Shown piece after piece: positions 12,430 to 27,583 of a DNA stretch of 64,000 nt. Made by a program: the position numbers and the translations under genes. The notes below the pieces were generated by a model. That model searched no databases. It was not told where the DNA came from and saw nothing but the letters and a program-made list of their open reading frames with translations. The stretch's first letter is position 1. Each line of letters starts with the position of its first letter. This DNA comes from Nitrospirota bacterium. GTDB lineage: Bacteria; Nitrospirota; Thermodesulfovibrionia; Thermodesulfovibrionales; JdFR-88. Location: assembly GCA_014874185.1 (NCBI GenBank), contig JACWAF010000033.1:21234-85233 (forward strand), in the 5' to 3' direction.

Positions 12430-12436
12430 GAGCGAT

Positions 12437-12949
12437 ATGGAATACCTTTTCTACATATCGGGTGCGGCGGCGGTAATTTCCACCTTCATGGTTATCATCC
12501 AGACGAAGGCGGTGCACGCCCTGTTGTACCTGATCGTCTCACTGCTTTCAGTGGCACTGGTCTTCTTCTCGTTTGGGGCGCCGTTCGTTGCCGCCCTGGA
12601 GGTGATTATCTATGCCGGGGCGATCATGGTCCTGTTCGTCTTCGTTATCATGATGCTTAACCTCGGCCCCGAGGCCGCTGAAGAGGAGAAGAAACTCATC
12701 TCCGCCAGGATGTGGATAGGGCCTTCCATACTGGCCGCAATCCTGCTTGCGGTGCTCATCTACACGCTGACCAGGACCGGAACAATAGCCAATCCGCTGA
12801 TAGTCGGGCCAAAAGAGGTGGGGATGGCGCTCTACGGCCCGTATCTCATAGGCGTGGAACTGGCCTCGATATTGCTTCTGGCCGGAATGGTAGGGGCCTA
12901 TCACCTGGGCAGGGGACGGCGTTACGGCGGCCCTGGGGAGGGGGAGTAA
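12437..12949 (+). CDS. nuoJ: NADH-quinone oxidoreductase subunit J
   Basis: 170 aa and hydrophobic. Position between nuoI and nuo[17 protein letters not shown] motif. Confidence 0.9.
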
Positions 12950-12950
12950 G

Positions 12951-13259
12951 ATGGCTTATCTGCCCGTGGAGCATGGGTTCATCCTGGCCGCGATTCTATT
13001 CGTAACCGGGCTTGCCGGCGTCCTGGTGAGGCGGAATATCATCTTCATACTCATGTCCATAGAGATCATGTTGAACGCCGCCGGGCTGGCCTTCATTTCG
13101 GCGGGCTCCAGGTGGGGGCAGCCGGACGGGCAGGTCATGTATATCTTCATTCTGGCCATGGCCGGGGCCGAGGTCTCGGTTGGGCTGGGTCTTGTGCTCC
13201 GCTTCTATCACCTGTTCAGGACCCTTGACGCCGACGAGGCAAGCAGGATGAAAGGATAA
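12951..13259 (+). CDS. nuoK: NADH-quinone oxidoreductase subunit K
   Basis: 102 aa with three TM helices. SIEIMLNA and AGAEVSVGL motifs. Confidence 0.93.
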
Positions 13260-15155
13260 ATGGATATGATGGGATTACTCTGGCTGGTCCCACTCTTGCC
13301 GTTCATCGGGTTCATAATCCTGGCCCTCTTCGGGAAGAGGATTTCAAACAGGGGCGCCGCCGCCGTGGGATGCGCATCCGTGGGGCTCTCCGCGGTCATT
13401 TCCATGCTTATCGCGGCAGACTTCATCTCCTTCAATCCCGATGGAAGGGCGTATTCGCAGGTGCTATGGACGTGGCTGCAGGTGGGCGGCTTCAGGCCGC
13501 AGATAGGCCTCTACCTGGACAGCCTTTCCCTGATAATGGTTCTCGTGGTCAGCTTTGTGGCCTTTTTCATACACCTCTATTCCGCGGCCTACATGAGGGG
13601 CGATGATGGCTACAGCAGGTTTTTCGCTTACATGAACCTCTTTGTTGGCTCGATGCTCACCCTCGTCCTGGCCGACAACCTGCTCCTTCTATACCTGGGA
13701 TGGGAGGGGGTAGGGCTTTGCAGTTATCTCCTTATAGGCTTCTGGTACAGGGACCCGGCGAACATACGGGCGGCCGTGAAGGCGTTTATCATAACCCGCG
13801 TGGGCGACACCTCGATGGCCATCGGGCTGTTTTTTCTTTTCCTGAACCTGGGCAGCCTGAACATACAGCAATTACTGGGGCTTGCAAGCCGGAGCTGGCC
13901 CATTGGTTCCGGGATGGCGGTTGCCGGAGCGGCCCTGCTGTTAGGAGGGGCGCTTGGCAAATCGGCCCAGCTTCCGCTTCAGACCTGGCTTCCTGACGCC
14001 ATGGCGGGCCCCACGCCCGTGAGCGCACTTATACACGCGGCCACAATGGTGACGGCGGGCGTCTATCTCATCGCGCGCACGCACGTGCTCTTCGAGCTTG
14101 CCCCCCAGGTGCAGGCGGCCGTGGCCGTAATCGGCGCGGTCACATTGCTTGTTTCGGCCGCGAGCGCGCTTACGCAGGTGGACATAAAACGGGTGCTTGC
14201 GTATTCGACAATAAGCCAGATAGGCTATATGTTTCTTGCCCTGGGGGTGGGCGCGTGGTCCGGGGCGATATTCCACTTCATGACGCACGCGTTCTTCAAG
14301 GCCCTCCTGTTCCTTGCGGCGGGCGTGATAATAACCGCCATGGGCGGAGAGCACGACATCTTCAAGATGGGCGGGCTAAGGAAGACCCTGCCCCTGGCGT
14401 TCTGGGCCTTTCTTGCCGGTGCGGCCTCGCTTGCGGCCATTCCCTTCATAACCGCCGGTTTCTACAGCAAGGACCTGATCCTCTGGAGCGTCTTCTCCTC
14501 AACTAAAGGGGGGGTATGGCTCTGGCTGACGGGATTGGCCGGGGCATTCCTCACCGCGCTTTATATCTTCCGGGTCTTCTTTGTGGTCTTCTTCGGCCAG
14601 ATGAAGGCCATTCCCCTGAGAAAGCGCGAGACCCTGTTCATAATACCCCTAGTAGTGCTTGCGGTCTTTTCGGTGATAGCGGGCTTCGTGGACCTGCCCG
14701 GCTGGATGGGGGCGGAGCGTTTCACCGGGTTCATAAGCACGAGTCTCCCCCTTACGCAGACCCTGCCCGTCGGCGGGGGGGCCGAGTTCATGGTGGACCT
14801 CCTTGGGGCGGTTGTGCCCCTGATAGGGCTCCTCTTTGCGTATCTGATCTACATTAGAAAACCTGCCTTTGCCGCAAACGTGGTCAGGAACCAGGCTGGC
14901 CGCGCCCTGAACCGGTTCTGGCTTGCCGGATGGGGATTCGATGCCGCCTATGACATCCTTCTGGTCCGCCCGTTTGACCGGCTCTCGCGGATGCTGAGAG
15001 GGGATGCGATTGATCTCGTTTACTCCGGGATAGCCTGGCTGAACAGGCTGGTCCATCTCCTCCTGAGCGGCACGGAGACGGGCAGGCTGAGGTGGTACGT
15101 CCTGGTGCTGGGGTTTGGCGGGGCGATCCTGATAGGGATAGCGGTGCTCTTATGA
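13260..15155 (+). CDS. nuoL: NADH-quinone oxidoreductase subunit L
   Basis: 631 aa antiporter-like subunit. WLPDAMAGPTPVSALIHAATMVTAG motif. Confidence 0.95.
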   Translation: MDMMGLLWLVPLLPFIGFIILALFGKRISNRGAAAVGCASVGLSAVISMLIAADFISFNPDGRAYSQVLWTWLQVGGFRPQIGLYLDSLSLIMVLVVSFVAFFIHLYSAAYMRGDDGYSRFFAYMNLFVGSMLTLVLADNLLLLYLGWEGVGLCSYLLIGFWYRDPANIRAAVKAFIITRVGDTSMAIGLFFLFLNLGSLNIQQLLGLASRSWPIGSGMAVAGAALLLGGALGKSAQLPLQTWLPDAMAGPTPVSALIHAATMVTAGVYLIARTHVLFELAPQVQAAVAVIGAVTLLVSAASALTQVDIKRVLAYSTISQIGYMFLALGVGAWSGAIFHFMTHAFFKALLFLAAGVIITAMGGEHDIFKMGGLRKTLPLAFWAFLAGAASLAAIPFITAGFYSKDLILWSVFSSTKGGVWLWLTGLAGAFLTALYIFRVFFVVFFGQMKAIPLRKRETLFIIPLVVLAVFSVIAGFVDLPGWMGAERFTGFISTSLPLTQTLPVGGGAEFMVDLLGAVVPLIGLLFAYLIYIRKPAFAANVVRNQAGRALNRFWLAGWGFDAAYDILLVRPFDRLSRMLRGDAIDLVYSGIAWLNRLVHLLLSGTETGRLRWYVLVLGFGGAILIGIAVLL

Positions 15156-16684
15156 CGCTTGGGCTGATTATCCTGATACTCATTGCCGGCGGGGTGCTCG
15201 CCTGGGCTCTGGGCAGGGTGAACGAGGTATTGGCAAGGGCGGTTTCCCTTCTGGCTATTTTCGTGGATTTGATTCTAACTATAAGCCTTCTTGCGGGCGG
15301 CGAATTCCGGATCTCGGGGGGCGGCGCATTCGTGGACCAGCTAAAAATGCCCTGGATACCCCAGCTTGGGATATCGCTTCATTTCGGGGCGGATGGGCTG
15401 AGCCTTCTTCTTCTGCTTCTGACCATGCTCCTTGGAATCGTCTCGGTGCTTGTCTCATGGAGGGAGATTACCGAGAGGGTTGGGTTTTTCCATTTCAATC
15501 TCCTGTTGGTGCTGGCGGGGATAGCGGGGGTATTTACGGCTCTGGATCTGTTCCTTTTCTATTTCTTCTGGGAGCTGATGCTGATACCCATGTACTTCCT
15601 CATCGCGGTCTGGGGGCACGAAAAGCGGGTCTATGCCTCGATAAAGTTTTTCATCTTCACCCAGGCGGGGGGGCTCCTGATGCTCCTTTCCATACTGGGG
15701 CTCTTTTATCTCCACGGGCAGGACACCGGAGTTTATACCTTCGATTATTTCAGCCTGGTTGGGACGCGAATGCCTTACGCGGTCTCCTTCTGGCTCATGC
15801 TGGGGTTTCTGGCCGGTTTCCTGGTGAAGGTCCCCGCCGTGCCGGTACACAGCTGGCTTCCAGACGCGCACACCGAGGCCCCTACGGCCGGGAGCGTGGT
15901 CCTGGCGGGCCTTTTGTTGAAGACCGGCGCGTACGGGCTCATCAGGTTCGTGGTGCCGTTTTTCCCGGACGCCTCGGCGGCCTTCGCCCCGGTAGGGATG
16001 GCACTGGGGGTTGCGGGCATAATTTACGGCGCCGTCCTTGCGTTCGGCCAGACCGATATGAAGAGGCTTATAGCCAACTCCAGCATAAGCCACATGGGGT
16101 TTGTCATACTTGGCATATATGCCTGGAACACTCTTGCCCTTCAGGGGGCGGTCATACAGATGCTCTGCCACGGGATCAGCACGGGGATGCTCTTTGTGAT
16201 CGCTGGCGCCCTGCAGGACAGGCTCCATACCAGGGAGATGGCGCGGATGGGCGGGCTGTGGGATGCGGCCCCGGCGCTTTCAGGTGTGGCGCTTTTCTTC
16301 GCGATGGCCTCACTGGGGCTGCCCGGGCTGGGTAATTTCGTTGCCGAGTTCCTCGTCCTCATGGGGACGTTCCGCTCGGATATGGTCTATTCGGTCCTGG
16401 CCTCTACGGGTTTCGTGCTCTCGACCATTTATTCGCTTAGTTTCGTGAGCAGGGTCTTTCACGGCAGGAGACCGGAGGGCCTTGCCCTTGCCGATCTCTC
16501 CCCCCGTGAAGGCGCGGTTTCACTTGTAATGATAGCCCTTATACTCTGGATAGGCCTTTATCCCCAGCCCATACTGCGGGTCTCAGGGGCGGCCCTCAAA
16601 GAGATAGAGCTTGGCGCGGCGGGCAGGCAGATGGCTGAGACGGCCGTCCCGCTCCTTCCGGAGGCATCCAATGGCGCCAGATGA
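15152..16684 (+). CDS. nuoM: NADH-quinone oxidoreductase subunit M
   Basis: ATG at 15152 in an ATGA overlap with nuoL. SWLPDAHTEAPTAGSVVLAG motif. Confidence 0.95.
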   Translation: MTLGLIILILIAGGVLAWALGRVNEVLARAVSLLAIFVDLILTISLLAGGEFRISGGGAFVDQLKMPWIPQLGISLHFGADGLSLLLLLLTMLLGIVSVLVSWREITERVGFFHFNLLLVLAGIAGVFTALDLFLFYFFWELMLIPMYFLIAVWGHEKRVYASIKFFIFTQAGGLLMLLSILGLFYLHGQDTGVYTFDYFSLVGTRMPYAVSFWLMLGFLAGFLVKVPAVPVHSWLPDAHTEAPTAGSVVLAGLLLKTGAYGLIRFVVPFFPDASAAFAPVGMALGVAGIIYGAVLAFGQTDMKRLIANSSISHMGFVILGIYAWNTLALQGAVIQMLCHGISTGMLFVIAGALQDRLHTREMARMGGLWDAAPALSGVALFFAMASLGLPGLGNFVAEFLVLMGTFRSDMVYSVLASTGFVLSTIYSLSFVSRVFHGRRPEGLALADLSPREGAVSLVMIALILWIGLYPQPILRVSGAALKEIELGAAGRQMAETAVPLLPEASNGAR

Positions 16685-18092
16685 TCTGAGGGCCCTTCTG
16701 CCTTTTATGATACTTGCGGCAAGCCCTGTTGCCGTAATCCTCGCCATAGCCTTTTACCGGGGCCACGCGCTCTCGTTCATAATCTCGATAGCCGGGCTTC
16801 TGATATCCTTCGGTTCCCTTTTTTATTCCTTCCGGTATGCCCCAAGGGCCGTCACGCCGCTTTTAATAATAGACAGGTACAGCCTTTTTTTTACCGGGCT
16901 TATCCTGCTGGCCACGCTTGCGGTCTCATTGATCTCGTTTGGCTATCTTGAGAACCGCTCATACAGGAGGGGTGAATACTACGCCCTGCTATTGAGCGCG
17001 GCGCTGGGCGCGTCAACCCTTGTTGCAAGCTCGCATTTCGCCTCCTTCTTCCTGGGTCTTGAGATACTTAGCCTCTCCCTTTACGCGATGGTGGCCTACA
17101 CGCGCGGCAGCAGGTTCAGCCTGGAAGCCGCTTTCAAGTACCTGGTGCTGGCCTCGGTCTCATCCGCGTTCCTGCTCTTCGGGATGGCCCTGATATATTC
17201 GTATGCGGGCACGATGGAGCTGGCCGGGCTTGCGCTGGTCTCACGGGCAGGCCCTTCGGTGTTCGCCACGGCAGGGCTTGCGATGATGCTGGTGGGGATT
17301 GGCTTCAAGCTGGCCCTGGCGCCTTTTCACATGTGGACGCCGGATGTGTACGAAGGGGCCCCGGCCCCCGTATCCGCCTTTGTGGCTACAGTCTCCAAGG
17401 GGGCGGTCTTCGCGCTCCTGGTGCGCTATTTCTCGGCGTTCAGCCTGCACGACTACCCCTACTTGTTCTGGGTGCTCGCGGGGATTTCCATACTGTCCAT
17501 GCTCATAGGCAACCTGCTGGCTCTTTTGCAGAACAATGTAAAGCGCATCCTTGCATACTCCTCTATCTCCCAACTGGGTTACCTGCTGGTGGCCTTTCTC
17601 GCTTCCGGACCTCAGTCCTTCGCGGCCGTCTCCTATTACCTGGCCTCGTATTTTGTCGCGATGCTGGGCTCATTCGGCATAGTGGCCGTCCTGGCCGGCC
17701 CGCGAGGCGAGCTGGTGAACCTGGAGGATTATCAGGGGCTGGTCTGGAACAGGCCCTGGCTGGCGGGGATATTCACCGGCATGCTCTTATCGCTGGCGGG
17801 GCTTCCGCTCACCGCGGGTTTCATAGCCAAATTCTATATCGTCTCGGCGGGCGTCCAGGCGGGCCAGTGGGCGCTTGTCCTGGTGCTTGCCGCAAGCAGC
17901 GTGATAGGGCTTTTCTACTATGTCCGGGTGATAGCGGCCATGTATTCCAAACGGCTTGAGGCCGTCCCTTACGGAGAGGTCCCGGTGGGGGGAGGGATAG
18001 CTGTCGCCGTCCTGACGGTAGCGCTCCTCTGGCTTGGGATATGGCCCTCTACGCTGATAGGGATCATACAAAGAATGATTTACGGCAACTGA
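16671..18092 (+). CDS. nuoN: NADH-quinone oxidoreductase subunit N
   Basis: ATG at 16671 (MAPDDLRALLPF), 14-nt overlap with nuoM. HMWTPDVYEGAPAPVSAF motif. Confidence 0.93.
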   Translation: MAPDDLRALLPFMILAASPVAVILAIAFYRGHALSFIISIAGLLISFGSLFYSFRYAPRAVTPLLIIDRYSLFFTGLILLATLAVSLISFGYLENRSYRRGEYYALLLSAALGASTLVASSHFASFFLGLEILSLSLYAMVAYTRGSRFSLEAAFKYLVLASVSSAFLLFGMALIYSYAGTMELAGLALVSRAGPSVFATAGLAMMLVGIGFKLALAPFHMWTPDVYEGAPAPVSAFVATVSKGAVFALLVRYFSAFSLHDYPYLFWVLAGISILSMLIGNLLALLQNNVKRILAYSSISQLGYLLVAFLASGPQSFAAVSYYLASYFVAMLGSFGIVAVLAGPRGELVNLEDYQGLVWNRPWLAGIFTGMLLSLAGLPLTAGFIAKFYIVSAGVQAGQWALVLVLAASSVIGLFYYVRVIAAMYSKRLEAVPYGEVPVGGGIAVAVLTVALLWLGIWPSTLIGIIQRMIYGN

Positions 18093-18107
18093 ATCTCTAA
18101 ACTAAAC

Positions 18108-18135
18108 TTGACACTGAAAGCCCTCATGATAGACT
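18108..18135 (+). promoter_or_regulatory. Candidate sigma70-type promoter for the cytochrome c / nar unit
   Basis: TTGACA (18108-18113), 16-nt spacer, TAGACT (18130-18135), inside the 123-bp nuoN/cytochrome-c spacer. Sequence match only. Confidence 0.3.
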
Positions 18136-18215
18136 TCAAAGAGAAAAAACCGGGCCTTCTCAAATTGAAAAGCAGGATTGTTTTGTTTTTAAAATAGCGG
18201 TCTTAGAGGTGTTTG

Positions 18216-18731
18216 ATGCTTAGGGTTCCAGGTGCCGTTATGCTGGTCTTCTTTCTGGTCCCGTTCCTCCCGGCGCAAGCCCCTATGGCAGCGGGCGACC
18301 CGCAGACGGGAAGACAGCTTTTCATCGGCACAAGGGAATTGAAAAATGGCGGGCCGCCCTGCATGGCCTGCCATAACGCCGGAGCCATAGAATTCCTCGG
18401 GGGCGGCAATCTTGGCCCGGACCTGACCAATTCGTTTTCCTCTTTCGGGCCGGGAATCGCCGGACTTCTGGAAAACGTGAGCTTTCCGGTCATGAAGCCC
18501 ATTTATGACGCGCACCCGATACAGCCGGATGAGGCGCAGGATATCGCGGCCTACTTGAAGGGCCTTTCGGGCGTTATTGTGCCCGTAGACCTGTTTTACA
18601 GGTTTCTCGTCCTCTCTCTTGTTGTATTCGTGGTCTTCATGCTCATAATCTGGTTCGCCTGGCGGCACAGGCTTGTGGGCGCAAGAAAGAGGCTTGTCAG
18701 CGCAGGACTGCCGCTTAATCCCCAGAGGTGA
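18216..18731 (+). CDS. Monoheme c-type cytochrome with signal peptide and C-terminal membrane anchor (NarC-like position)
   Basis: AGAGGTG Shine-Dalgarno then ATG at 18216. Hydrophobic N-terminal leader, a single CMACH heme motif, C-terminal TM helix LVLSLVVFVVFMLIIWFAW. The stop at 18729-18731 lies 1 nt before the narG ATG. Confidence 0.8.
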   Translation: MLRVPGAVMLVFFLVPFLPAQAPMAAGDPQTGRQLFIGTRELKNGGPPCMACHNAGAIEFLGGGNLGPDLTNSFSSFGPGIAGLLENVSFPVMKPIYDAHPIQPDEAQDIAAYLKGLSGVIVPVDLFYRFLVLSLVVFVVFMLIIWFAWRHRLVGARKRLVSAGLPLNPQR

Positions 18732-18732
18732 T

Positions 18733-21700
18733 ATGGGCTGGATACAGGACATAGTGGACCCCAAGGCAAGACTGTGGGAGGAATTGTACCGGAACCGGTG
18801 GGAATACGACCGACTGCACAGGAGCACCCATGGCGTGAACTGCACGGGCGGATGTTCCTGGGAGGTCTACGTGAAAGACGGCATCGTGGTCTGGGAGCTG
18901 CAGGCCACCGATTATCCTTCCCTTGAGCCCGGACTTCCCGGTTATGAGCCCCGCGGATGCCAGAGGGGCATAACCTTTTCCTGGTATATATACAGCCCTC
19001 TCAGGGTGAAATACCCCTATATAAGAGGCGTACTGGCCGATATGTGGCGGAAGGCCAGGGCGGCCTTCGCCGATCCCGTCGAGGCATGGGCGTCGATTAT
19101 GGAAGATGAAGAGGCCAGGAAGAGATTTCAGAAGGCCAGGGGAAAGGGCGGACTGAGGCGCACTACATGGGACGAAGCCGTGGAGATAATCTCCGCCGCC
19201 ACCCTTTATACCATAAAGAAGTACGGCCCCGACCGGCTGGCGGGTTTTACGCCCATCCCGGCCATGTCCATGCTCAGCTACGCCTCGGGCGCCAGGTTCC
19301 TGCAGCTTCTGGGCGGGGTAGTCCTCAGCTTTTACGACTGGTATGCCGATTTCCCTCCGGCCTTTCCGGAGGTCTGGGGGGACAAGACCGACGTTGGGGA
19401 GAGCGCGGACTGGTACAACAGCAAGATGATCGCCGTTATGGGGTCGAACCTGAACATGACGAGGACGCCTGACGTGCACTTTGCCGCGGAGGCAAGGAAC
19501 AACGGCTCCAAACTTGTCGTCTTCTCCCCGGATTTCAGCCAGCTCTCCAAATACGCCGACTGGTGGCTGCCAGTGAGGGCCGGGCAGGACGCGGCCTTCT
19601 GGATGGCCGTGGACCACGTGATCCTTAAAGAGTTTTACGCCGATGCGGAGGTCCCTTTCTTCTCCGGGTATCTGAAAAAATATACGGACGCCCCGTTCCT
19701 GGTTGAAATAGAAGTGAAAGAGGACTCCAACAGGGCTGGAAAATTCCTCCGGGCGGGCGAGCTTGACCGGTATAAAGGTTCCGAAAACCCCGAATGGAAA
19801 CTCCTGGTATTCGATGCCAAAACGAACTCGGCAAAATCTCCCAACGGCTCGATAGGGTTCAGATGGCAGAAGCGGGAAGGGCTGTGGAACCTCAATATGA
19901 AAGACGGCGAGGACGGTTCGGAAATAGAGCCGGTGCTCAGTTTTATAAAAGACAGGGATGCCGTCATCCCGGTAGATTTCCATTCTGCCGGGGATGCCGG
20001 GAATCTCCGGCGCGGGGTGCCGGTAAAGTACATCGAGACTGCGAGGGGCCCGGTGGCCGTAAGCACGGCCTTTGACCTGATGACGTCGCAGTTCGGCGTC
20101 TCGCGCGGCCTGGAGGGGGATTATCCTGAAGGGTACGGCGATAATATGGCTTATACCCCTGCATGGCAGGAAAAACATACGGGGATAAGTGCGGACACCG
20201 TTGTGCAGTTCGCGCGCGAATGGGCCCGCACCGCAGTCAGCACCAGGGGCAAATGCATGGTAATCGCGGGCTCCGGCGTGAACCACTGGTACAACGCCAA
20301 CCTGATTTACCGTTCGGCCATTACGGCCCTGATGCTCTGCGGGTGCGTGGGGGTGAACGGGGGAGGGATGAACCACTATACCGGGCAGGAGAAGATCGTC
20401 CCCGAGTCGGCCTGGCGCACTATCGCGTTCGCGACGGACTGGCTCAATCCGCCACGCCTTCAGAATACGCCCTCTTACCATTACGTGCACAGCTGCCAGT
20501 GGCGCTACGACTCGCCCGGACGCGAGGACAGGATCCTTGGGAACGATCACCCCATGGATATGCAGGCCATGGCGGTGCGCCTAGGGTGGCTGCCTTTTTA
20601 TCCCCAGTTCGACAGGAGCACCATCGGGCTTGTGAAAGAGGCCGCAGGGGCGGGTGCGAAAACGGATGATGAGATAATAAGCTGGCTTATACGAGAACTG
20701 AAGGAAGAGAGGGTCCGCTTCGCCGTGGAGGAACCGGACAGGCCTGAAAACTGGCCCAGGGTTCTTTTCATATGGCGCGGCAACGCCCTCCACACCAGCG
20801 CAAAAGGCGAAGAGTATTCGTTCAAACATTACCTTGGCACCGGCACAAACGAGATATCCGAAGAGACGAAGAACCCGCCCATCCATGATGTAAGCATGAA
20901 GTGGCCGGCCCCCGAGGGAAAGCTGGACCTTGTCGTGGATCTTAATTTCAGGATGGACACCTCGGCGCTTTATTCCGATATCATACTGCCCTCCGCAAGC
21001 TGGTACGAAAAAGACGACATGAACACGACCGACCTTCATTCCTATATCCATCCCCTTTCCGCCGCGGTGCCCCCGTGCTGGGAGTCGAAGGACGACTGGG
21101 AGATTTTCAAGACGATAGCAAGGAAAGTGAGCGAGCTTTCCAGGGCCCATTTCCCAAGGCCGTTCAAGGACATCGTTGCCACCCCCCTCATGCATGATTC
21201 AAGGGATGAAATGGCACAGCCCTCGGTCAAGGACTGGAAAAAGGGCGAGTGCGAGCCCATCCCCGGAAAGACCATGCCCAGGTTCACCATAGTGGAAAGA
21301 AATTATCCGGACCTCTATAACAGGTATATCTCCTTCGGCCATCTTCCCAAAAAGACCGGCATGCACGAAAAGGGCGTCCACTGGCAGATGGAAGACCTCT
21401 ATTACGATTATCTGAAGGGAGCGCCGTCTGAAACCTGGGGCGGCAAGACCTACATATCACTTTCGGGGGCAAGGGAGGCGGCCAATGTGGTCCTGTTCTT
21501 CGCCCCGGAGACAAACGGTGAGGTATCACACAGGGGTTTTGAGGACCTCGAAAAAAAGACCGGCGTGAAACTGGCCGGCCTGGCGGAAGAGACGAGGGGG
21601 GTGCGCTACAGTTTCGCGGACCTCCTGGCCCAGCCAAGAAGGATACTTACATCTCCATGCTGGACCGGCATAACGAACAGGGGCAGGGCATACTCGGCCT

Positions 21701-22329
21701 TTGTGATAAACGTGGAGCGGGGAGTGCCCTGGCGGACCCTTTCCGGGCGGCAGCATTTTTACATGGACCATGAAGGCTATCGCGAGTTCAACGAGGGCTT
21801 CCCCACCTTCAAGGCAAAGCTTACGAAAGAGCGCTCCGGGGACCTGCGGAAGACAGCCTCCGCGGGCAGGTCCGTCCTTCTCAACTGCCTGACCCCGCAT
21901 GGCAAGTGGCACATACACAGCACCTATTCTGACAACTTGCTGATGCTGCTCCTGTCGAGAGGGGTGGAGCCTTTCTGGCTGAACCTGGCGGACGCCGCGG
22001 AAATTGGCGTAAGGGACAACGACTGGGTGGAGGTCTACAACGACAACGGGGTGGTGGTGACCAGGGCGGTCCTGAGCGCGCGAATCCCGAGGGGGGTGGG
22101 CTTCTTCTATCATGCCCCTGAGCGCACTATGGGTTTCCCGAAATCGCCCTTGAGAAATATGAAACGGGGAGGCGGCACGAACGCCCTGACGCGCGTGCGC
22201 CTTAAACCCCTTTTCATGATCGGCGGATACGCGCAGTTTTCATACGCGTTCAATTACTGGGGGCCTCCGGCCCCGGACAGGGACACGTACGCCCTGGTCC
22301 GGAAGCTGGAAGGCAAGCCGGTTTTTTAA
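18733..22329 (+). CDS. narG: Respiratory nitrate reductase alpha subunit (NarG-type Mo-bisMGD enzyme; could equally be a cytoplasm-facing NxrA)
   Basis: ATG at 18733 after AGAGGTG. HRSTHGVNCTGGCSWEVY is the FS0 H-x3-C-x3-C motif. Similarity to my recollection of E. coli NarG runs end to end (GPDRLAGFTPIPAMSMLSYASGARF, YDWYADFPP, ILPSASWYEKDDMNT, TPHGKWHIHSTYSDNLLML). No twin-arginine signal. Confidence 0.93.
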   Translation: MGWIQDIVDPKARLWEELYRNRWEYDRLHRSTHGVNCTGGCSWEVYVKDGIVVWELQATDYPSLEPGLPGYEPRGCQRGITFSWYIYSPLRVKYPYIRGVLADMWRKARAAFADPVEAWASIMEDEEARKRFQKARGKGGLRRTTWDEAVEIISAATLYTIKKYGPDRLAGFTPIPAMSMLSYASGARFLQLLGGVVLSFYDWYADFPPAFPEVWGDKTDVGESADWYNSKMIAVMGSNLNMTRTPDVHFAAEARNNGSKLVVFSPDFSQLSKYADWWLPVRAGQDAAFWMAVDHVILKEFYADAEVPFFSGYLKKYTDAPFLVEIEVKEDSNRAGKFLRAGELDRYKGSENPEWKLLVFDAKTNSAKSPNGSIGFRWQKREGLWNLNMKDGEDGSEIEPVLSFIKDRDAVIPVDFHSAGDAGNLRRGVPVKYIETARGPVAVSTAFDLMTSQFGVSRGLEGDYPEGYGDNMAYTPAWQEKHTGISADTVVQFAREWARTAVSTRGKCMVIAGSGVNHWYNANLIYRSAITALMLCGCVGVNGGGMNHYTGQEKIVPESAWRTIAFATDWLNPPRLQNTPSYHYVHSCQWRYDSPGREDRILGNDHPMDMQAMAVRLGWLPFYPQFDRSTIGLVKEAAGAGAKTDDEIISWLIRELKEERVRFAVEEPDRPENWPRVLFIWRGNALHTSAKGEEYSFKHYLGTGTNEISEETKNPPIHDVSMKWPAPEGKLDLVVDLNFRMDTSALYSDIILPSASWYEKDDMNTTDLHSYIHPLSAAVPPCWESKDDWEIFKTIARKVSELSRAHFPRPFKDIVATPLMHDSRDEMAQPSVKDWKKGECEPIPGKTMPRFTIVERNYPDLYNRYISFGHLPKKTGMHEKGVHWQMEDLYYDYLKGAPSETWGGKTYISLSGAREAANVVLFFAPETNGEVSHRGFEDLEKKTGVKLAGLAEETRGVRYSFADLLAQPRRILTSPCWTGITNRGRAYSAFVINVERGVPWRTLSGRQHFYMDHEGYREFNEGFPTFKAKLTKERSGDLRKTASAGRSVLLNCLTPHGKWHIHSTYSDNLLMLLLSRGVEPFWLNLADAAEIGVRDNDWVEVYNDNGVVVTRAVLSARIPRGVGFFYHAPERTMGFPKSPLRNMKRGGGTNALTRVRLKPLFMIGGYAQFSYAFNYWGPPAPDRDTYALVRKLEGKPVF

Positions 22330-22340: not shown

Positions 22341-23828
22341 GTGGACATCCGCGCCCAGGTATCGATGGTCTTTCATCTGGACAAGTGCATAGGCTGCCAC
22401 ACATGCAGCATCGCCTGCAAGAACATCTGGACCCCCAGGCGCGGCACCGAGTACATGTGGTGGAACAACGTTGAGACGAAGCCCGGCACCGGCTATCCCA
22501 CCCTGTGGGAAGACCAGGGTAAATACAGGGGCGGCTGGGCCGTCCACAAGGGAAAACCCAAACTGAAATTGCAGGGCAGGGCGGGCGCGCTGGCCAACAT
22601 ATTCTTCAACCCGTATCTGCCCACGATGGGCGACTATTACGAGCCCTGGACATATCACTATGAAGACCTCGCCAATGCCCCGGAGGGCGACGACCAGCCG
22701 GTCGCGACCCCGGTCTCGGAGATAACCGGCCGGGACATGGAAATAGAGGCCGGGCCTAACTGGGATGATGATCTGAGCGGCTCTTACATTTATGCCGAAA
22801 GCGACCCGAACAGGCTGGCGCTTACGCCGGAGGAGAGAGAGGTCTCCTTCAGGATGGAGAGGCTCGCCTTCTTCTACCTGCCCAGGATCTGCAATCACTG
22901 CCTGAACCCCGGCTGCCTTGCCGCGTGTCCGGCGGGCGCCATTTACAAACGCGGGATGGACGGCATAGTGCTTGTAAGCCAGGACAAGTGCCGGGCGTGG
23001 AGGATGTGCATATCCGGCTGTCCGTATAAAAAAGTCTATTACAACTGGGCGACGGGAAAATCCGAGAAGTGCATATTGTGCTATCCAAGGCAGGAAACGC
23101 AGCAGCCGCCCGCGTGTTTCCACGCGTGCGTGGGGCGCATCCGTTATCTGGGGCTGGTGCTTTATGATGCCAAGATGATAGAGGCGGCCGCCTCCGTTCC
23201 GGACCATGAGCTTGTGAGCGCGCACAGGGACATTATTAAAGACCCGTTTGACCCGGAGGTCATCGCCAGGGCGAAAGAGAATGGCATATCCGATCACATG
23301 ATCAAAGCCGCGCAGTCGTCGCCCGTATACAAATTTGTGAAAGAGTGGCGGATCGCGCTCCCCCTTCATCCAGAATTCAGGACACTGCCGATGCTCTTTT
23401 ATGTCCCGCCGCTTCTTCCGGTTACAGCCTCGATGAAAGACGGCATCTACGAGAGCACGGGTGAATTTTTCGGCTCACTTGAGAATTTGAGGGTCCCTCT
23501 CAGGTATTTCGCGTCGCTTCTGGCCGGGGGGAACGAAGCCGAAGTGGAGCGCTCTTTCAAAAAGCTCTACGCGGTGCGGGTCTACAGGCGCGCGCAGACG
23601 GCGGGCGATATAAGCCAGAAGGAGGTCAGCCGGGTGCTCGAAGCGGCGGACACGTCTCCGGAGGAAGTCGAAGCCATATACAAAATGAGCTCGCTTGCCT
23701 CATATGAGGAGCGGTTCGTCATGCCGCCGTTCATGCGCGAGGCGGCCATAGAGGCCGAGGAAGAGCCGTCCAGGAGAAAAACGGATGCAGGGGCCGGGTT
23801 CATAAGCAAACTGAGGAGGGGTATCTGA
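22341..23828 (+). CDS. narH: Respiratory nitrate reductase beta subunit (Fe-S)
   Basis: GTG start 7 nt after AGGAG. MDIRAQVSMVFHLDKCIGCHTCSIACKNIW..WWNNVETKPG closely parallels E. coli NarH. Further Cys clusters CNHCLNPGCLAACP and CRAWRMCISGCPY. Confidence 0.95.
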   Translation: MDIRAQVSMVFHLDKCIGCHTCSIACKNIWTPRRGTEYMWWNNVETKPGTGYPTLWEDQGKYRGGWAVHKGKPKLKLQGRAGALANIFFNPYLPTMGDYYEPWTYHYEDLANAPEGDDQPVATPVSEITGRDMEIEAGPNWDDDLSGSYIYAESDPNRLALTPEEREVSFRMERLAFFYLPRICNHCLNPGCLAACPAGAIYKRGMDGIVLVSQDKCRAWRMCISGCPYKKVYYNWATGKSEKCILCYPRQETQQPPACFHACVGRIRYLGLVLYDAKMIEAAASVPDHELVSAHRDIIKDPFDPEVIARAKENGISDHMIKAAQSSPVYKFVKEWRIALPLHPEFRTLPMLFYVPPLLPVTASMKDGIYESTGEFFGSLENLRVPLRYFASLLAGGNEAEVERSFKKLYAVRVYRRAQTAGDISQKEVSRVLEAADTSPEEVEAIYKMSSLASYEERFVMPPFMREAAIEAEEEPSRRKTDAGAGFISKLRRGI

Positions 23829-23832: not shown

Positions 23833-24363
23833 ATGGAAAACTGCCCTGCGGGGCTTTATGCCCTTTTTGCGGACCTGATGGATTATCCCACCCCCGCCTT
23901 GAAGGAAAAGGCGGGCGAGTGCGCTTCCGCCTTGCCGGCGGTGAACGGAAAGGCCCTGGGCCCGTTTTCCAGGTTCAGGGATTTTCTGGAAGGGGCCGAA
24001 CTCTCCCTGGTCGAGGAACTTTACACAAGGACATTCGATCTGCAGCCCGTGTGTCCCCCATACGCCGGGCAATACCTCTTCGGTCAGGACATGAGGCGGG
24101 GCATGTTCATGGCGAAATTAAGGAAGCTCTACCGCGAGCGCAATTTCCCGGAGAACGGCGAACTTCCGGACCACCTTGGCGTGATGCTCAGGTTCGTGTC
24201 GAAAAGCCCCTCCATCGAGGAGGCCAGGGAGATTGTGGAATTCTGTCTTGTGCCCTCTTTTCAGAAAATGGTCTCGAAGCTTGCGGAAGGGGAAAACCCT
24301 TACGGGTTTCTGGTCAACGCAATCCTCCTGGCCCTGAACGGGAAAGAGGAGAAAGCGGCGTAG
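23833..24363 (+). CDS. narJ: Nitrate reductase molybdenum cofactor assembly chaperone (NarJ/TorD family)
   Basis: 176 aa. Position between narH and narI. YTRTFDL and ELPDHLGVMLRF motifs typical of NarJ. Confidence 0.8.
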   Translation: MENCPAGLYALFADLMDYPTPALKEKAGECASALPAVNGKALGPFSRFRDFLEGAELSLVEELYTRTFDLQPVCPPYAGQYLFGQDMRRGMFMAKLRKLYRERNFPENGELPDHLGVMLRFVSKSPSIEEAREIVEFCLVPSFQKMVSKLAEGENPYGFLVNAILLALNGKEEKAA

Positions 24364-24367: not shown

Positions 24368-25072
24368 ATGTCAGATACGGTCTATTTCATAGCCTTCCCC
24401 TACCTTGCCCTCTTTGCCGCATTGGGAGGCGGCCTTTACAGGTACTACAAGCACCGGTTTACGTATTCGAGCGTCTCCTCCCAGCTACTGGAGAACAGGA
24501 TGCTTTTCTGGGGTTCCGTGCCCTGGCATTACGGGATAATCCTGATACTTCTTGCCCATATCGTTCCCCTGGTGGCAACGCCCTTCTGGATATGGCTCCA
24601 TGCGGATCCCACCAGGATACTGCTCCTGGAGGTCATCGGCTCGGCCATGGGGTTCCTGGCCATCCTGGGCATGGCGGCCCTGATCCTGAGGCGCCTCTTC
24701 AGCTTGAAGCCGCGCCATGCCACATCCATCATGGACTGGGTGCTATTGATCGACCTGGCATTTCAGATAGCGCTCGGGTTTTACATCACCCTGTATTACA
24801 GGTGGGGATCAAGCTGGTATCTGTTCACGGCCACTCCGTGGATACGCTCGCTTGCCGCCCTGAACCCCAGGGTAGATTTCGTCAATGAGCTGCCGCCGGT
24901 TGTCCAGCTCCATTTCGTGAACGGGTTCCTGGTTATCGCCCTGATACCGTTTACAAGGCTGGGCCACTTGTTTACCGTTCCGGTCACTTATCTGTGGAGG
25001 CCGTTCCAGGTATTTATATGGAGCAGGAAGAAAAACGGCTATAATGAAACGGGAGGCATATATGGGAAATGA
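24368..25072 (+). CDS. narI: Respiratory nitrate reductase gamma subunit (diheme b, membrane)
   Basis: 234 aa with five TM helices. Conserved His in WHYGIILILLAHIV and later helices. The gene order narGHJI fits. Confidence 0.85.
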   Translation: MSDTVYFIAFPYLALFAALGGGLYRYYKHRFTYSSVSSQLLENRMLFWGSVPWHYGIILILLAHIVPLVATPFWIWLHADPTRILLLEVIGSAMGFLAILGMAALILRRLFSLKPRHATSIMDWVLLIDLAFQIALGFYITLYYRWGSSWYLFTATPWIRSLAALNPRVDFVNELPPVVQLHFVNGFLVIALIPFTRLGHLFTVPVTYLWRPFQVFIWSRKKNGYNETGGIYGK

Positions 25073-25589
25073 AGAGGAGCGGTCAGCCCCTACGGTCTCA
25101 AGGCGGAGCTTTGTATTGAGAGCGGTCATAGGCGTGTTCACTTCGCTGGGCGCGCTGGTGATGGCCGTGCCTTTTTTAAGGGTGGTATTCAACGCCGCCC
25201 CGCTTAGAAAGGCCGAATGGGCCGAAGCCGCCAATATCAGCATATTGCCGGAAGGGCAGCCGAAAGACGTTAAATTCGAGGCCCATTCGGTGGACGCTTA
25301 TTTGCGGCAGATGAAACTGAGGAGCGTATGGGTGATAAAGCACTCCCCCGAAATTTTTTCCGTTTTTTCCCCCATCTGCCCCCACCTGGGCTGCTATTAT
25401 AAGTGGGACCCCTCGACACAGCATTTCGAATGCCCCTGCCATGGCAGCGTTTTCACCATTACCGGGAAGGTCATAGGCGGGCCTGCTCCAAGGCCGCTGG
25501 ACACCCTCCCTTACAAGGTGCAGGGGGGCAAGCTGTTTGTGAAGTGGGAGAGGTTCCAGGTCGGCATACCTCAGAAGGTAAGGGTATAG
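25062..25589 (+). CDS. Rieske [2Fe-2S] protein with twin-arginine signal (bc-complex copy 1)
   Basis: GGGAGG then ATG at 25062 (an alternative ATG lies at 25044). SRRSFVLRAVIG Tat motif. CPHLGC...CPCHGS Rieske boxes. Overlaps the narI 3' end by 11 nt. Confidence 0.9.
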   Translation: MGNEEERSAPTVSRRSFVLRAVIGVFTSLGALVMAVPFLRVVFNAAPLRKAEWAEAANISILPEGQPKDVKFEAHSVDAYLRQMKLRSVWVIKHSPEIFSVFSPICPHLGCYYKWDPSTQHFECPCHGSVFTITGKVIGGPAPRPLDTLPYKVQGGKLFVKWERFQVGIPQKVRV

Positions 25590-25591: not shown

Positions 25592-27583
25592 ATGGCCTGG
25601 AAATGGTTTACCGAAAAGTGGCCCTATTACCAGCTTAAAAAGCTGCTCCTTTATGAGGAGCTGCCCGGAGGAGCTGCGTTTGCGTCTACGCTGGGAAGCT
25701 CCCTCATGGTCATCTTTACCTTGCAGGTCCTCACCGGCATAGCCCAGCTCTTCTATTATGTCCCTACGACAGACCATGCCTACGACAGCGTGGCCTATCT
25801 GCGCACGGAAGTCCCGTTCGGCTGGTTCGTTCATAACATGCACTACTGGGGCGCCAACGCGATGGTCCTCGTTATCGCCCTGCACATGATAAGGGTTTAT
25901 GTCTGGGGGGCATACAAGACACAGCTTACCTGGCTTATCGGGGTCGCCCTCATGCTTTGCGCAATGGTAATGAGCTTCACCGGCGCGCCCCTCATATGGG
26001 ACGAGAAGGGATACTGGGCAGGTGAAGTAGGCTCCGGCATAACCAGTACTGTCCCTGTTTTGGGCAATATTGTGAAAACGATACTCCGGGGCGGCGAATC
26101 GATGGGCCAGCTTTCGATATCCCGGTTCTTCGTATTTCATGTGTGGGTCTTCGCGCCGGTCCTGGCTTTCCTGATAGCGGCCCATATAGCGGCCTTAAGG
26201 ACGACCGGGATAGCAGGCCCCTGGGATGAAAGAAAGAGAAGGCGGGTGGGCCATTTCTGGCCGGACCAGGCGGCTAGAGACATTATCGTGGCCTCGGTCG
26301 TCTTTTTCATCCTGGTCACCCTTTCCGTATTTTTGCCCCCTCCGTTCACCGGGCAGGCGGACCCCCTCAACACATCCTATGTGCCCAAACCGGAGTGGAA
26401 CTTCCTTTTCGTCTACCAGGCGCTCAAATATTTTCAGGGCCCGCTGGAGCCGGTCGGCACCGTGGGCGTGCCGACAGTTCTTATAGTTCTCCTTGTCATA
26501 TTGCCCTTCATTGACAAGGGCCCGGAACGGAACCCGCTTAGAAGGCCGATTGCAATGGCCTGCCTGTTCGTATATGCCTGTTTCATAATAGCCATGACCA
26601 TAATGGGTTATCTCAGCCCCGGTTTTGCCCAGATGGCCGGGGCGGCCGGGGCCCCGGCGGCAAGGTTGGGAAAAGGCGAGACCGGCGGCGCAAAAGGGCC
26701 GGCTGGGAAGGGCGTTGCGGCCGGCCGGAAGCTCTTTCAAAGCGAAGGCTGTGCCGGATGCCACAAGGTAAACGGACAGGGCGGAACCATGGGGCCTGAG
26801 TTATCAGGGGCCACGCTGAAGGGAAAGACCAGGAAGTGGCTTGCCGATCAGATAAGAAACCCGAAATCACATAATCCGAATTCCATAATGCCCGCTTTCA
26901 GCCAGCTCTCGAAGAACCAGGTAAACGCGCTGGTTGACTATCTCATGGGTCTTGCTGGCACTGGCGGGGCCCCGGGGCCTGCGGCAAAGCCGCAGCCCCG
27001 GGCGCCGGGTGCCGGTGCTCAAGTCCAGCCCGGTCAGGCAAATGCGGTATCGGCACCGGGGCAGGCCCAACCCAGCCAATTAAAGGTGGTCCCGCCCGAT
27101 ACGGTGCCGGAAACTCCGTCGGGTAAAGCGGCATATATAATAGGCAGTGCCAGCAATGGAGAACAGCTCTTCAAGGAACAATGCGCGCAATGCCATGGGG
27201 CAAAAGGGGCTGGCGGAGTGCCCAATCCCGGTTCGGCTGAGGGGGTGGTCCCCCCGCTTAGTCCCATAAATAAAAACATCGCGAGCCCGGACCCGAAGCA
27301 GTTTGCCCGGAACATAGATAAATTCATTCAGCATGGGGCCATTCCCCCAGGGCCCAATCCGGCCCTGCAGATGCCGGTCTTCGGCGACAATAATTCCCTC
27401 ACCCAGCCGGAGATTTCAAACATAGAGGCATACATACTGAAGCTGAACGGGGTGGACCGCAGCATCCCCGCTCACCCCGGAATGGACCCGCGCCTGTTTT
27501 ATGCGGTATTCGTTATCGCCTATGTTGTCGCCGCAATCGTTCTCCTCATGATGTGGCGAAATGCGGGGAGGAGCCGGACATGA
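25592..27583 (+). CDS. Fusion protein: cytochrome b (b6-like N domain + subunit IV-like C domain) + two class I c-type heme domains + C-terminal TM anchor
   Basis: ATG at 25592 (MAWKWFTEKW). Helix B is H-x13-H (HYWGANAMVLVIALH) and helix D is H-x14-H (HVWVFAPVLAFLIAAH). KPEWNFLF sits at the PEWY position. CAGCH..MPAF and CAQCH..MPVF heme c units are separated by P/A/G/Q-rich linkers. Terminal TM helix FYAVFVIAYVVAAIVLLMMW. Confidence 0.9.
   Translation: MAWKWFTEKWPYYQLKKLLLYEELPGGAAFASTLGSSLMVIFTLQVLTGIAQLFYYVPTTDHAYDSVAYLRTEVPFGWFVHNMHYWGANAMVLVIALHMIRVYVWGAYKTQLTWLIGVALMLCAMVMSFTGAPLIWDEKGYWAGEVGSGITSTVPVLGNIVKTILRGGESMGQLSISRFFVFHVWVFAPVLAFLIAAHIAALRTTGIAGPWDERKRRRVGHFWPDQAARDIIVASVVFFILVTLSVFLPPPFTGQADPLNTSYVPKPEWNFLFVYQALKYFQGPLEPVGTVGVPTVLIVLLVILPFIDKGPERNPLRRPIAMACLFVYACFIIAMTIMGYLSPGFAQMAGAAGAPAARLGKGETGGAKGPAGKGVAAGRKLFQSEGCAGCHKVNGQGGTMGPELSGATLKGKTRKWLADQIRNPKSHNPNSIMPAFSQLSKNQVNALVDYLMGLAGTGGAPGPAAKPQPRAPGAGAQVQPGQANAVSAPGQAQPSQLKVVPPDTVPETPSGKAAYIIGSASNGEQLFKEQCAQCHGAKGAGGVPNPGSAEGVVPPLSPINKNIASPDPKQFARNIDKFIQHGAIPPGPNPALQMPVFGDNNSLTQPEISNIEAYILKLNGVDRSIPAHPGMDPRLFYAVFVIAYVVAAIVLLMMWRNAGRSRT

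Follow-up and report, generated by a model that had tools for sequence, protein, structure and literature searches.

The locus raises the question of why a gene for a small, single-heme, membrane-anchored cytochrome c opens the respiratory nitrate reductase operon of a Nitrospirota bacterium, and what its product does for an enzyme whose catalytic subunit faces the cytoplasm. The window, i.e. the whole stretch of DNA analysed, comprises 64,000 nt. The gene and the elements of its product are as follows:

18216..18731, + strand: narC-like gene, encoding a 171-aa monoheme membrane-anchored class I cytochrome c (NarC homology, conserved narG linkage, AF2 model)
18216..18296, + strand: N-terminal export signal or hydrophobic segment, residues 1-27 (...FLPAQA/PMAAG) (hydropathy)
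18360..18374, + strand: heme c attachment motif CMACH (C49, C52, H53; residues 49-53), invariant in 246 family members
18492..18494, + strand: Met93 in FPVMKPIY, invariant in 246 family members
18594..18662, + strand: transmembrane helix, about residues 127-149, with a conserved stripe at 130/134/137/141/144 (hydropathy, AF2, family alignment)
18660..18698, + strand: predicted cytoplasmic juxtamembrane motif W149-R150-x-R152-L153-x-x-(V)-R157-K-x-L-V (conservation over 246 sequences)

According to the ORF list and translation, the narC-like frame runs from ATG 18216 to the TGA at 18729-18731 (171 aa); the end at 18735 given in the preliminary description takes in the narG ATG. The earliest start codon in the frame, TTG 18213, would add a single residue and is directly preceded by an in-frame stop, which leaves no space for a second heme domain. 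CMACH is the only CxxCH of the product, and Met93 is the probable sixth heme ligand; in most family members the ligand Met lies 40-42 residues past the heme His. Hydropathy analysis revealed two hydrophobic segments, residues 1-27 and about 124-155. The AF2 model (pLDDT 80) shows a class I cytochrome c fold, with heme-domain helices at residues 29-37, 73-86, 94-99 and 104-117, followed by a single long helix over residues 124-164. Together, these data bear out the preliminary account of a 171-aa protein with a secretory leader, one CMACH site and a C-terminal transmembrane helix. AF2 confidence is low over residues 1-27; cleavage after AQA is uncertain because Pro comes next, and the segment may be retained as a second anchor. 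The sequence RHRLVGARKR directly follows the second hydrophobic segment and, by the positive-inside rule, places the C-terminus in the cytoplasm and the heme domain in the periplasm, the latter thus being predicted to sit on a C-terminal membrane helix. Within this helix the family consensus (246 sequences) is A/G at position 134 and G at position 137, forming a stripe of small residues, while the W-R-x-R-L-x-x-V-R motif behind it is as conserved as the heme pocket in the 246 family members and may contact the cytoplasmic face of NarGH or NarI.

With its CxxCH, Met ligand and helical core, the protein is a class I c-type cytochrome, and its PF00034 score of 16.3 bits, below the cutoff of 21.3, makes it a divergent member of the class. 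The Pfam search of the protein returned nothing at E 0.01, and TIGR04485 matched it weakly. The best PDB fold matches of the AF2 model in Foldseek were SoxX and SorU (2oz1_B, E 2e-3; 4pwa_D); these cytochromes lack a membrane anchor, their genes lie in unrelated surroundings, and the likeness is one of general fold only. A chance open reading frame was also considered and is ruled out by relatives in >505 species genomes.

The region upstream of the gene and its junction with narG contain three short elements:

18108..18135, + strand: promoter-like site TTGACA-16 nt-TAGACT (consensus match only, 10 of 12)
18205..18211, + strand: Shine-Dalgarno-like AGAGGTG before narC (sequence motif)
18724..18730, + strand: AGAGGTG before narG, over the narC stop codon (sequence motif)

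The gap between the upstream nuoN-like gene, ending at 18092, and the narC-like gene measures 123 nt. The promoter-like site is the sole one in positions 17900-18800, with 0.5 expected in shuffled sequences. AGAGGTG occurs seven times on the + strand of the window, and the copy lying over the stop codon suggests a putative translational coupling of narC and narG, the ATG of the latter (18733) being located 1 nt past the narC-like stop. Both the 1-nt spacing and the shared motif had been pointed out in the preliminary description and are confirmed here. As in Thermus, the narC-like gene heads the nar operon, with narG next; a promoter-like site lies 5' of it. The nar genes that follow are:

18733..22329, + strand: narG, cytoplasmic respiratory nitrate reductase alpha subunit, 1198 aa, with a Thermus-type short N-terminus (TIGR01580, alignments)
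22341..23828, + strand: narH (TIGR01660 633 bits, cutoff 524)
23833..24363, + strand: narJ chaperone gene (PF02613 47.3 bits; TIGR00684 57.0 bits, just below the cutoff of 59.35)
24368..25072, + strand: narI, diheme b membrane subunit (PF02665 191 bits; TIGR00351 106.1 bits, cutoff 105.55)

The enzyme is of the cytoplasm-facing NarGHI type: NarG scores 1456 bits against TIGR01580 (cutoff 1084), NarH and NarI are above their cutoffs, NarJ is recognized through PF02613, and no twin-arginine motif was found in residues 1-30 of NarG. The proposed arrangement of a periplasmic heme and a Tat-less, cytoplasmic NarG is therefore consistent with the sequence. Alignment of the NarG N-terminus, which the preliminary description had put forward as a check together with its estimate of about 20 missing residues, places R13 of the window NarG opposite R30 of the E. 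coli protein, i.e. the N-terminus is 17 residues shorter, and shows the same short start in Thermus NarG. Over the first 100 residues the closest sequence is Thermus NarG (73% identity, aligned from residue 3), followed by proteobacterial NarG (about 63%, aligned from residue 13). E. coli NarG possesses an N-terminal NarJ-binding end and a hairpin, both of which are missing from this NarG type; the lack of the NarJ-binding end in Thermus NarG has already been published (PMC10609526).

An in-frame TTG at 18673 would allow a longer NarG with a NarJ-binding or Tat-like peptide. However, the 20 additional residues (LWAQERGLSAQDCRLIPRGD) have no counterpart in any homolog, and the overlapped stretch encodes, in the other frame, the conserved cytoplasmic NarC motif. 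Both Met 18733 and the 25 residues after it are kept in about 70 loci, the pattern MGWIQD..P..R.WEE.YRNRW being conserved across phyla, several loci have an in-frame stop immediately 5' of the ATG, and Thermus NarG begins equally short. We regard the chance of the upstream start as close to nil and reject it outright in favour of Met 18733; the recognizable upstream N-terminus that the preliminary description had named as a result against its proposal was thus not observed.

Neither Pfam nor NCBIfam contains a NarC model, therefore membership in the NarC family was assessed by direct comparison. BLASTP against NarC of T. thermophilus NAR1 (L084, 8926-9711) gave 49% identity over 90 residues (E 1e-23), with residues 119-208 of NarC, its second (C-terminal) heme domain, aligned to residues 27-114 of the window protein. 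In the reverse tblastn search, the narC-like gene was the only match of the Thermus C-terminal domain in the window (E 2.5e-27), and the C-terminal membrane helix is common to both proteins. Judged by sequence, the narC-like protein is a homolog of T. thermophilus NarC without its N-terminal heme domain, in agreement with the Thermus comparison drawn earlier; the comparison with NarC and class I cytochromes proposed at that stage thus returned NarC homology and, by AF2 and Foldseek, a class I fold. In Thermus, NarC is likewise a c-type cytochrome that is exported to the periplasm by Sec and has a membrane helix at its C-terminus, and its gene opens the narCGHJIKT operon, which specifies a heterotetrameric NarCGHI, and abuts narG. 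Unlike the window protein, Thermus NarC has 262 aa and two hemes (CASCH and CQACH), and its operon continues with nitrate/nitrite transporters instead of a Rieske/cytochrome b-c complex. The window protein, with its one CxxCH and no possible upstream extension, lacks the diheme character. In the search for a remnant of the lost domain, only the 123-nt gap was found upstream, and sequences resembling this domain occur in the window only as the c domains of a cytochrome b fusion located downstream (38% identity, E 1e-10).

The PDB, which holds no solved NarC structure, was also searched with profiles, and the result was dominated by the N-terminal domain of diheme relatives; the diheme family profile matched QcrC chains weakly (E about 4e-9). 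Diheme QcrC of actinobacterial bcc complexes and membrane-anchored cytochrome c1 share with the window protein the order of c domain(s) and C-terminal membrane helix. However, the gene context of QcrC is unlike that of the narC-like gene, and its role is filled in the window by the cytochrome b-c fusion. The profile NF050122 hits Thermus NarC with E 1e-10 and 41 bits, far under the family cutoff of 200.

Relatives of the narC-like protein were found in many phyla, the nearest of them in Nitrospirota. Among the 80 best loci, narG lies directly downstream of the narC homolog in 78, usually followed by narH, narJ and narI, with stop-to-start gaps of -4 to +7 nt between narC and narG common across loci; the scattering of homologs over unrelated loci, which the preliminary description had considered a result against it, is not what these loci show. 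All 246 family members keep the ligands C49/C52/H53 and M93. The statement that a cytochrome c opening narGHJI was known only from Thermus proved too narrow in view of the many phyla covered, of Nitrobacter-type operons (PMC12823411) and of locus L077. The protein is indeed monoheme and smaller than Thermus NarC, as had been noted, but this is not unusual: among the closest family representatives about 40% carry a single heme, and a rough NJ tree distributes monoheme members over at least six separate clades. A compensating separate cytochrome c gene after narI was seen in one of seven readable monoheme loci, which makes no pattern, and several diheme loci carry a multiheme gene after narI. 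In a Nitrospira genome (L032) a NarC-NarI pair occurs without NarGH, which suggests that NarC and NarI form a unit. The conserved core of NarC comprises the second heme domain, the membrane helix and the cytoplasmic basic motif; several lineages lack the first heme domain, which is dispensable. Since no Pfam or NCBIfam model describes this core, one-heme forms stay unannotated.

These data also bear on the possibility of a general membrane-tethered cytochrome c, of the cytochrome cy or c552 kind, that serves complex III or oxidases and adjoins narG by chance. The weak, generic cytochrome c similarity in Pfam and NCBIfam, the generic class I fold matches and the presence of complex III in the same operon agree with such a function. 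Against it, the place directly 5' of narG is kept in 78 of 80 loci from many phyla, often with overlapping stop and start, complex III already has two c domains here, and the protein is specifically homologous to a subunit that Nar assembly in Thermus has been shown to require. We therefore consider this explanation highly improbable.

With the NarC homology, the tight narG linkage, the consistent topology and the family-wide conservation at hand, the reading that we prefer, with a probability of roughly 75%, is that one-heme NarC is a fourth Nar subunit, seated on NarI, that serves assembly and acts as a periplasmic electron tap. That the monoheme protein is a subunit, that it touches NarI and in which direction it passes electrons are inferred, the assembly role being derived from Thermus genetics. 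In Thermus, narC mutants have soluble, immature NarG (PMC7694296; PMC10609526), NarC is required for growth on nitrite or NO (PMC7694296; PMC10609526), and two-hybrid assays, in Thermus only, showed its interaction with NarI (PMC7694296). By analogy, NarI is the presumed partner of the narC-like protein. The latter would be exported via Sec, acquire one covalent heme with His53 and Met93 as ligands, and be kept in the membrane beside NarI by its C-terminal helix, from which the conserved basic helix would extend on the cytoplasmic side. The conserved stripe of the membrane helix together with the cytoplasmic motif fits a fixed membrane partner and a cytoplasmic contact. As for assembly, NarC and NarI would form the membrane platform for maturation and attachment of NarGH. 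As for redox function, the periplasmic heme c would lie near the outer heme b of NarI, and menaquinol electrons could leave NarI through the NarC heme towards periplasmic c-type cytochromes. The absent N-terminal heme domain would be an accessory relay dispensed with in many lineages; here, class I cytochrome c domains sit instead on the cytochrome b encoded in the same presumptive transcript. In Thermus NarC, the "distal" heme reportedly matters more than the other for passing electrons to Nir/Nor (PMC7694296). Should this be the N-terminal heme, a monoheme protein may tap electrons less well and may have a mainly structural role. No nir, nor or nos genes were found in the 64,000-nt window.

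The preliminary description did not mention the genes joined to the 3' end of the operon, namely:

25062..25589, + strand: Rieske [2Fe-2S] protein with an SRRSF twin-arginine motif, its start overlapping the end of narI (profile matches)
25592..27583, + strand: cytochrome b with fused N- and C-terminal parts, then two class I cytochrome c domains and a transmembrane helix at the C-terminus (profile matches)

The narI, Rieske and cytochrome b/c genes belong to one operon, each overlapping or adjoining the next. In the window, the nuo, nar and Rieske/cytochrome b genes lie side by side, and the nar operon is followed by genes of the oxidative pentose phosphate pathway. The run of narCGHJI into a Rieske protein and a cytochrome b-c fusion is the least ordinary feature of the locus. 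A second Nitrospirota species (L004) has the same gene order, and in a Melainabacteria MAG (L017) narI is likewise followed by Rieske/cytochrome b genes; overall, they were seen in about 3 of roughly 60 loci with readable sequence at this position. The Thermus model offers no explanation for co-transcription with a complete Rieske/cytochrome b-c complex, complex III being repressed in Thermus under denitrification (PMC7694296).

This arrangement invites the opposite direction of electron flow, in which NarC is the inlet and electrons pass from the menaquinol-oxidising Q cycle of the Rieske/cytochrome b complex through the fused c hemes and the NarC heme to NarI, NarH, NarG and nitrate. If true, a supercomplex of Nar and complex III would gain more protons per electron. 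In textbook bacterial chains Nar bypasses complex III. Besides the overlapping or abutting genes and their recurrence in L004 and L017, the inlet is favoured by the fact that the only window sequences resembling the missing N-terminal domain of NarC are the c domains of the fusion (see above). His/Met c hemes usually have potentials well above those of the NarI b hemes, therefore transfer from c to b, and then inward against the membrane potential, would be uphill; moreover, Rieske/cytochrome b genes in about 3 of roughly 60 loci cannot reflect the general role of the family. Haloarchaea provide a precedent, with Rieske and cytochrome b genes inside nar clusters feeding Nar (PMC3509893). However, haloarchaeal NarG has a Tat signal and faces outward, neither of which applies to the window enzyme; the haloarchaeal "NarC" is an unrelated b-type cytochrome, the shared name being coincidental. 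On balance we find an inlet role unlikely. A broader form of the idea, that one-heme NarC is the docking heme of a Nar-complex III supercomplex encoded by a single operon, with a c-heme wire to NarI for either Q cycle-coupled nitrate reduction or outward reverse flow, is speculative, and we give it a small chance. In the outward direction, electrons from nitrite would run towards complex III and the neighbouring complex I in support of reverse electron flow.

Alternatively, the enzyme could run in reverse as a cytoplasm-facing nitrite oxidoreductase of the Nitrobacter type, for which NarC would be the electron exit to the cytochrome c pool and complexes III and I would support reverse flow. 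In Nitrobacter-type nxr/nar operons (cytochrome c, nxrA, nxrX, nxrB, narJ, narI), a class I cytochrome c gene likewise opens the operon, before a cytoplasm-facing NarG/NxrA catalytic subunit (PMC12823411), and the enzyme is thought to oxidise nitrite. The L077 operon has this layout, with an NxrX-like FKBP gene and a cytochrome of the narC family, although the L077 protein is diheme and the window protein monoheme. A review on Thermus draws the same parallel (PMC7694296), and the contiguity of the nuo, nar and Rieske/cytochrome b genes would suit reverse flow. The NxrX isomerase gene situated between the alpha and beta subunit genes in these operons is, however, absent from the window, where narG ends at 22329 and narH starts at 22341. 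NarG scores well over the narG equivalog cutoff, neither carbon fixation nor terminal oxidase genes were found in the window, and the genes after the operon are those of the oxidative pentose phosphate pathway. Finally, the family occurs mostly in lineages not known to oxidise nitrite. Nitrite oxidation therefore seems very unlikely, and one-heme NarC as an assembly subunit and electron tap on NarI remains the preferred reading.

One-heme NarC is a variant of the subunit studied in Thermus, in a family that is widespread and in which the monoheme form is common; the find is solid rather than startling. NarC has so far been treated as a Thermus peculiarity, a 2020 review stating that it is absent from the nar operons of mesophiles, whereas hundreds of species from many phyla have a family member at the head of their nar operons. 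The conserved core suggests where to look in Thermus, and an assembly contact that replaces the NarJ-binding end of E. coli NarG might involve the juxtamembrane motif and the short, conserved start of NarG. The link to the Rieske/cytochrome b-c genes provides a concrete system in which to ask whether electrons can pass between complex III and a Nar that faces the cytoplasm.

The reading frame ahead of narG begins behind an AGAGGTG motif at 18205; its first start codon is a TTG at 18213, just upstream of which lies an in-frame stop, so that the N-terminus of the protein cannot extend further.

18216-18731, + strand: narC-like open reading frame, 171 residues (from reading of the ORF)
18360-18374, + strand: heme motif CMACH, residues 49-53, the only one in the protein

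The N-terminus consists of a hydrophobic segment ending in AQA, after which cleavage by signal peptidase is doubtful because a proline comes next; with or without cleavage, the heme domain is predicted to be periplasmic. A second hydrophobic segment (approximately residues 124-155) is followed by RHRLVGARKR. The ATG of narG (18733) lies 1 nt past the TGA of this gene and is preceded by a second AGAGGTG at 18724, and the encoded NarG has no twin-arginine signal. Every element of the preliminary description (leader, single CMACH, C-terminal membrane helix, 1-nt gap, AGAGGTG and Tat-less NarG) is therefore present. The protein has no significant match in Pfam; its AF2 model (mean pLDDT 80) has the fold of a class I cytochrome c, continued by a single long helix, with SoxX and SorU as top matches among solved structures, at the level of general fold only, and a profile search found no NarC among solved structures. 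A 218-aa ORF on the opposite strand (18189-18845, -) spans narC and the narG start and is treated as a shadow ORF, since the plus-strand genes are strongly conserved.

A search of a collection of 5.8 billion proteins with the window protein returned 23 relatives, most of which have two heme motifs in a length of 270-290 aa; some, of 185-206 aa, have one motif. Alignment places the window protein on the C-terminal half of the long relatives, comprising heme domain, membrane helix and basic tail, with the shared heme-domain signature G-x-x-x-F-x-G...GGPPC-x-x-CH...LGGG-x-LGPDLT...FP-x-M. As reference, we used the characterised narC of the Thermus thermophilus NAR1 megaplasmid (L084), annotated there in the order c-type cytochrome, nitrate reductase alpha, narH, chaperone, narI and two transporters. 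BLASTP aligned the window protein with the second heme domain of this NarC (residues 119-208; 49% identity over 90 residues, E 1e-23), which bears out the narC-like reading first proposed and identifies the protein, at the sequence level, as a NarC homolog without the first heme domain.

With each species represented by one genome, a scan found relatives in at least 505 species, the matches listed including Nitrospirota, Chloroflexota, Acidobacteriota, Actinomycetota, Eremiobacterota, Thermodesulfobacteriota, Bdellovibrionota, Planctomycetota, Pseudomonadota and Thermaceae; searching 1.84 billion cluster representatives exhaustively with HMMER yielded 732 matches at E <= 1e-10. The absence of NarC from nar operons of mesophiles, stated in a 2020 review (PMC7694296), is not supported by this family scan. 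Of the 80 best loci, 78 have narG directly downstream, normally with narH, narJ and narI, and distances of -4 to +7 nt between narC stop and narG start are frequent; the remaining two loci are L047, where the contig ends, and L032, from Nitrospira. That the window protein is a generic tethered cytochrome is contradicted by this conserved linkage.

The monoheme state is not rare in the family. About 13 of the 80 loci carry monoheme genes, after correction of two over-extended ORFs (L004 and L076), and among the best 149 cluster representatives, query excluded, two-heme forms number 76 (median 293 aa) and complete-looking monoheme forms 53-62 (median 193 aa). A neighbour-joining tree of the shared domain distributes monoheme forms over at least six separate clades: the window protein with L004 (Nitrospirota), an Anaerolineales clade, a Thermodesulfobacteriota clade, and single lineages in Acidimicrobiia, Acidobacteria, Actinomycetota and Chloroflexi; the sister group of the window protein and L004 consists of two-heme Nitrospirota proteins (L005, L006). 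Loss or gain of the first heme domain has thus probably happened repeatedly, the number of events being approximate because the tree is a rough one. No description of a monoheme NarC was found in the literature searched; in sequence databases the one-heme variant is common. Longer members with three or four heme motifs were also seen (L047, 3545-4780; proteins P0043, P0139 and P0158), for example one of 411 aa in Candidatus Thiomargarita nelsonii, so that the number of N-terminal heme domains varies in both directions. Anaerolineales monoheme relatives (loci L018, L020, L025, L026; proteins P0011, P0013, P0020) have a lipoprotein-like LFGC box, not an AxA site, in the signal region and may be tethered at both ends. 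In seven Bdellovibrionota/Acidobacteriota loci with diheme NarC (L039, L045, L058, L059, L064, L073, L078), an ORF of about 185-205 aa with 4-5 CxxCH motifs stands right after narI.

NarG, NarH, NarJ and NarI of the window were identified by Pfam and NCBIfam, NarG reaching 1456 bits with the narG equivalog model, whose cutoff is 1084. The NarG N-terminus had been described as shorter than that of E. coli, and alignment pairs R13 of window NarG with R30 of E. coli NarG, which has 17 extra N-terminal residues covering RFRYFKQKGETFADGHGQ; directly aligned, window NarG shares its short start with Thermus NarG and not with E. coli. A longer NarG starting at TTG 18673, posed earlier as an alternative, is ruled out, since across loci the N-terminus is kept from the Met on (M-[GS]-W-I-[QK]-[DE]-[LI]-x-x-P-x-x-R-x-W-E-E-F-Y-R-N-R-W) and in several of them an in-frame stop immediately precedes the ATG. 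Among the NarG proteins of the plasmid collection, that of Thermus alone aligns to window NarG from residue 3 (73% identity), whereas proteobacterial/enterobacterial NarG or NarZ align from residue 13 (~63%); in the cases examined, NarC and the short N-terminus thus go together. According to Magalon's review, Thermus NarG has neither the N-terminal end that binds NarJ nor the hairpin after it, and this absence is tied to the dependence of NarG maturation on NarC/NarI (PMC10609526).

The unusual feature of this locus is that the operon continues downstream with genes of complex III type.

25062-25589, + strand: Rieske gene with SRRSF Tat motif, overlapping the end of narI (Pfam, NCBIfam)
25592-27583, + strand: 663-aa fusion of a cytochrome b, two class I cytochrome c domains and a C-terminal membrane helix, same operon

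L004 has the same nar-Rieske-cytochrome b/c order, and in a Melainabacteria MAG (L017) narI is followed by Rieske/cytochrome b genes; most other loci have none in the ~1-1.6 kb readable past narI. Within the window, only the c domains of the fusion resemble the missing first NarC domain (38% identity, E 1e-10), which may be merely general class I similarity. In published accounts, cytoplasm-facing bacterial Nar bypasses complex III. The joining of nar and Rieske/cytochrome b genes in one operon makes it attractive that complex III passes electrons to NarI, but such a transfer is energetically unfavourable and cannot serve as the general role of the NarC family. Haloarchaeal nar clusters also contain Rieske/cytochrome b genes, although Nar faces outward there (PMC3509893) and the cytoplasm in the window; a planctomycete has adjacent complex III genes and no NarC (PMC5673643). 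A second Rieske and cytochrome b6-type pair lies at 39137-40248 (-), bringing the Rieske/cytochrome b complexes of the organism to at least two. Directly upstream of narC, a putative complex I operon ends at 18092, the gene before narC carrying PF00361, and the 123-nt gap holds a promoter-like site by consensus match; the long run of co-oriented ORFs at 3611-18092 (+) is complex I (nuo)-like, as judged from its last genes (PF00361). In L004, too, nuo genes (NuoM/N-like matches) lie upstream, but there a PEP-utilising-domain protein of 1457 aa sits between them and narC. Right after the respiratory operon lies a pentose phosphate cluster (27553-35917), with rpiB, zwf, pgl, gnd and a HAD hydrolase on the plus strand and transaldolase and transketolase on the minus strand. 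A 307-aa ORF at 51716-52639 (-) has cytochrome c7 and MtrC/MtrF-like multiheme domain matches.

Nitrobacter-type nitrite oxidoreductase operons also start with a class I cytochrome c, and L077, an alphaproteobacterial MAG locus with an NxrX-like gene, has a NarC-family member; with no nxrX in the window and nothing there that indicates autotrophy, it is very improbable that the window enzyme is such an oxidoreductase. The L077 locus (7584-14655) has a Nitrobacter-type layout of NarC-family cytochrome, NarG/NxrA, a 194-aa FKBP/SlyD-like ORF (12339-12923, label judged from sequence) and NarH. Inserts of 0.4-2 kb between narG and narH were seen in L028, L029, L050, L051, L065 and L083, that of L083 resembling a small opposite-strand gene pair.

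Across 246 family members G32, C49, C52, H53, G63 and M93 are invariant, and the membrane helix bears a stripe of conserved positions (130, 134, 137, 141 and 144), position 134 being A/G and position 137 G in most members. In its conservation, the cytoplasmic juxtamembrane motif W149-R150-x-R152-L153-x-x-V156-R157 equals the heme pocket. This is more than expected of a mere anchor, and the pattern is in line with a fixed partner for the helix within the membrane and a contact at the cytoplasmic face. In the Nitrospira sp. MAG (L032, 7542-9215), the gene for a diheme NarC homolog stands immediately before that for a NarI homolog, and the ~7 kb downstream contain neither NarG nor NarH; this pair may be a stand-alone cytochrome b/c module and suggests that NarC and NarI form one unit. 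In Thermus, NarG stays soluble and immature in narC as well as in narI mutants, two-hybrid assays show an interaction between NarC and NarI, and growth on nitrite and NO under complex III repression requires NarC; the 'distal' heme is reported to be the more important one for transfer to Nir and Nor (PMC7694296). By homology with Thermus, the window NarC would have a role in assembly; from its topology and the Thermus phenotype, its periplasmic heme would also exchange electrons with the outer heme of NarI. Going by the usual heme potentials, NarI to c heme would be the thermodynamically easier direction. The window gene is a known kind varied, with one heme where Thermus NarC has two and an operon extended by complex III.
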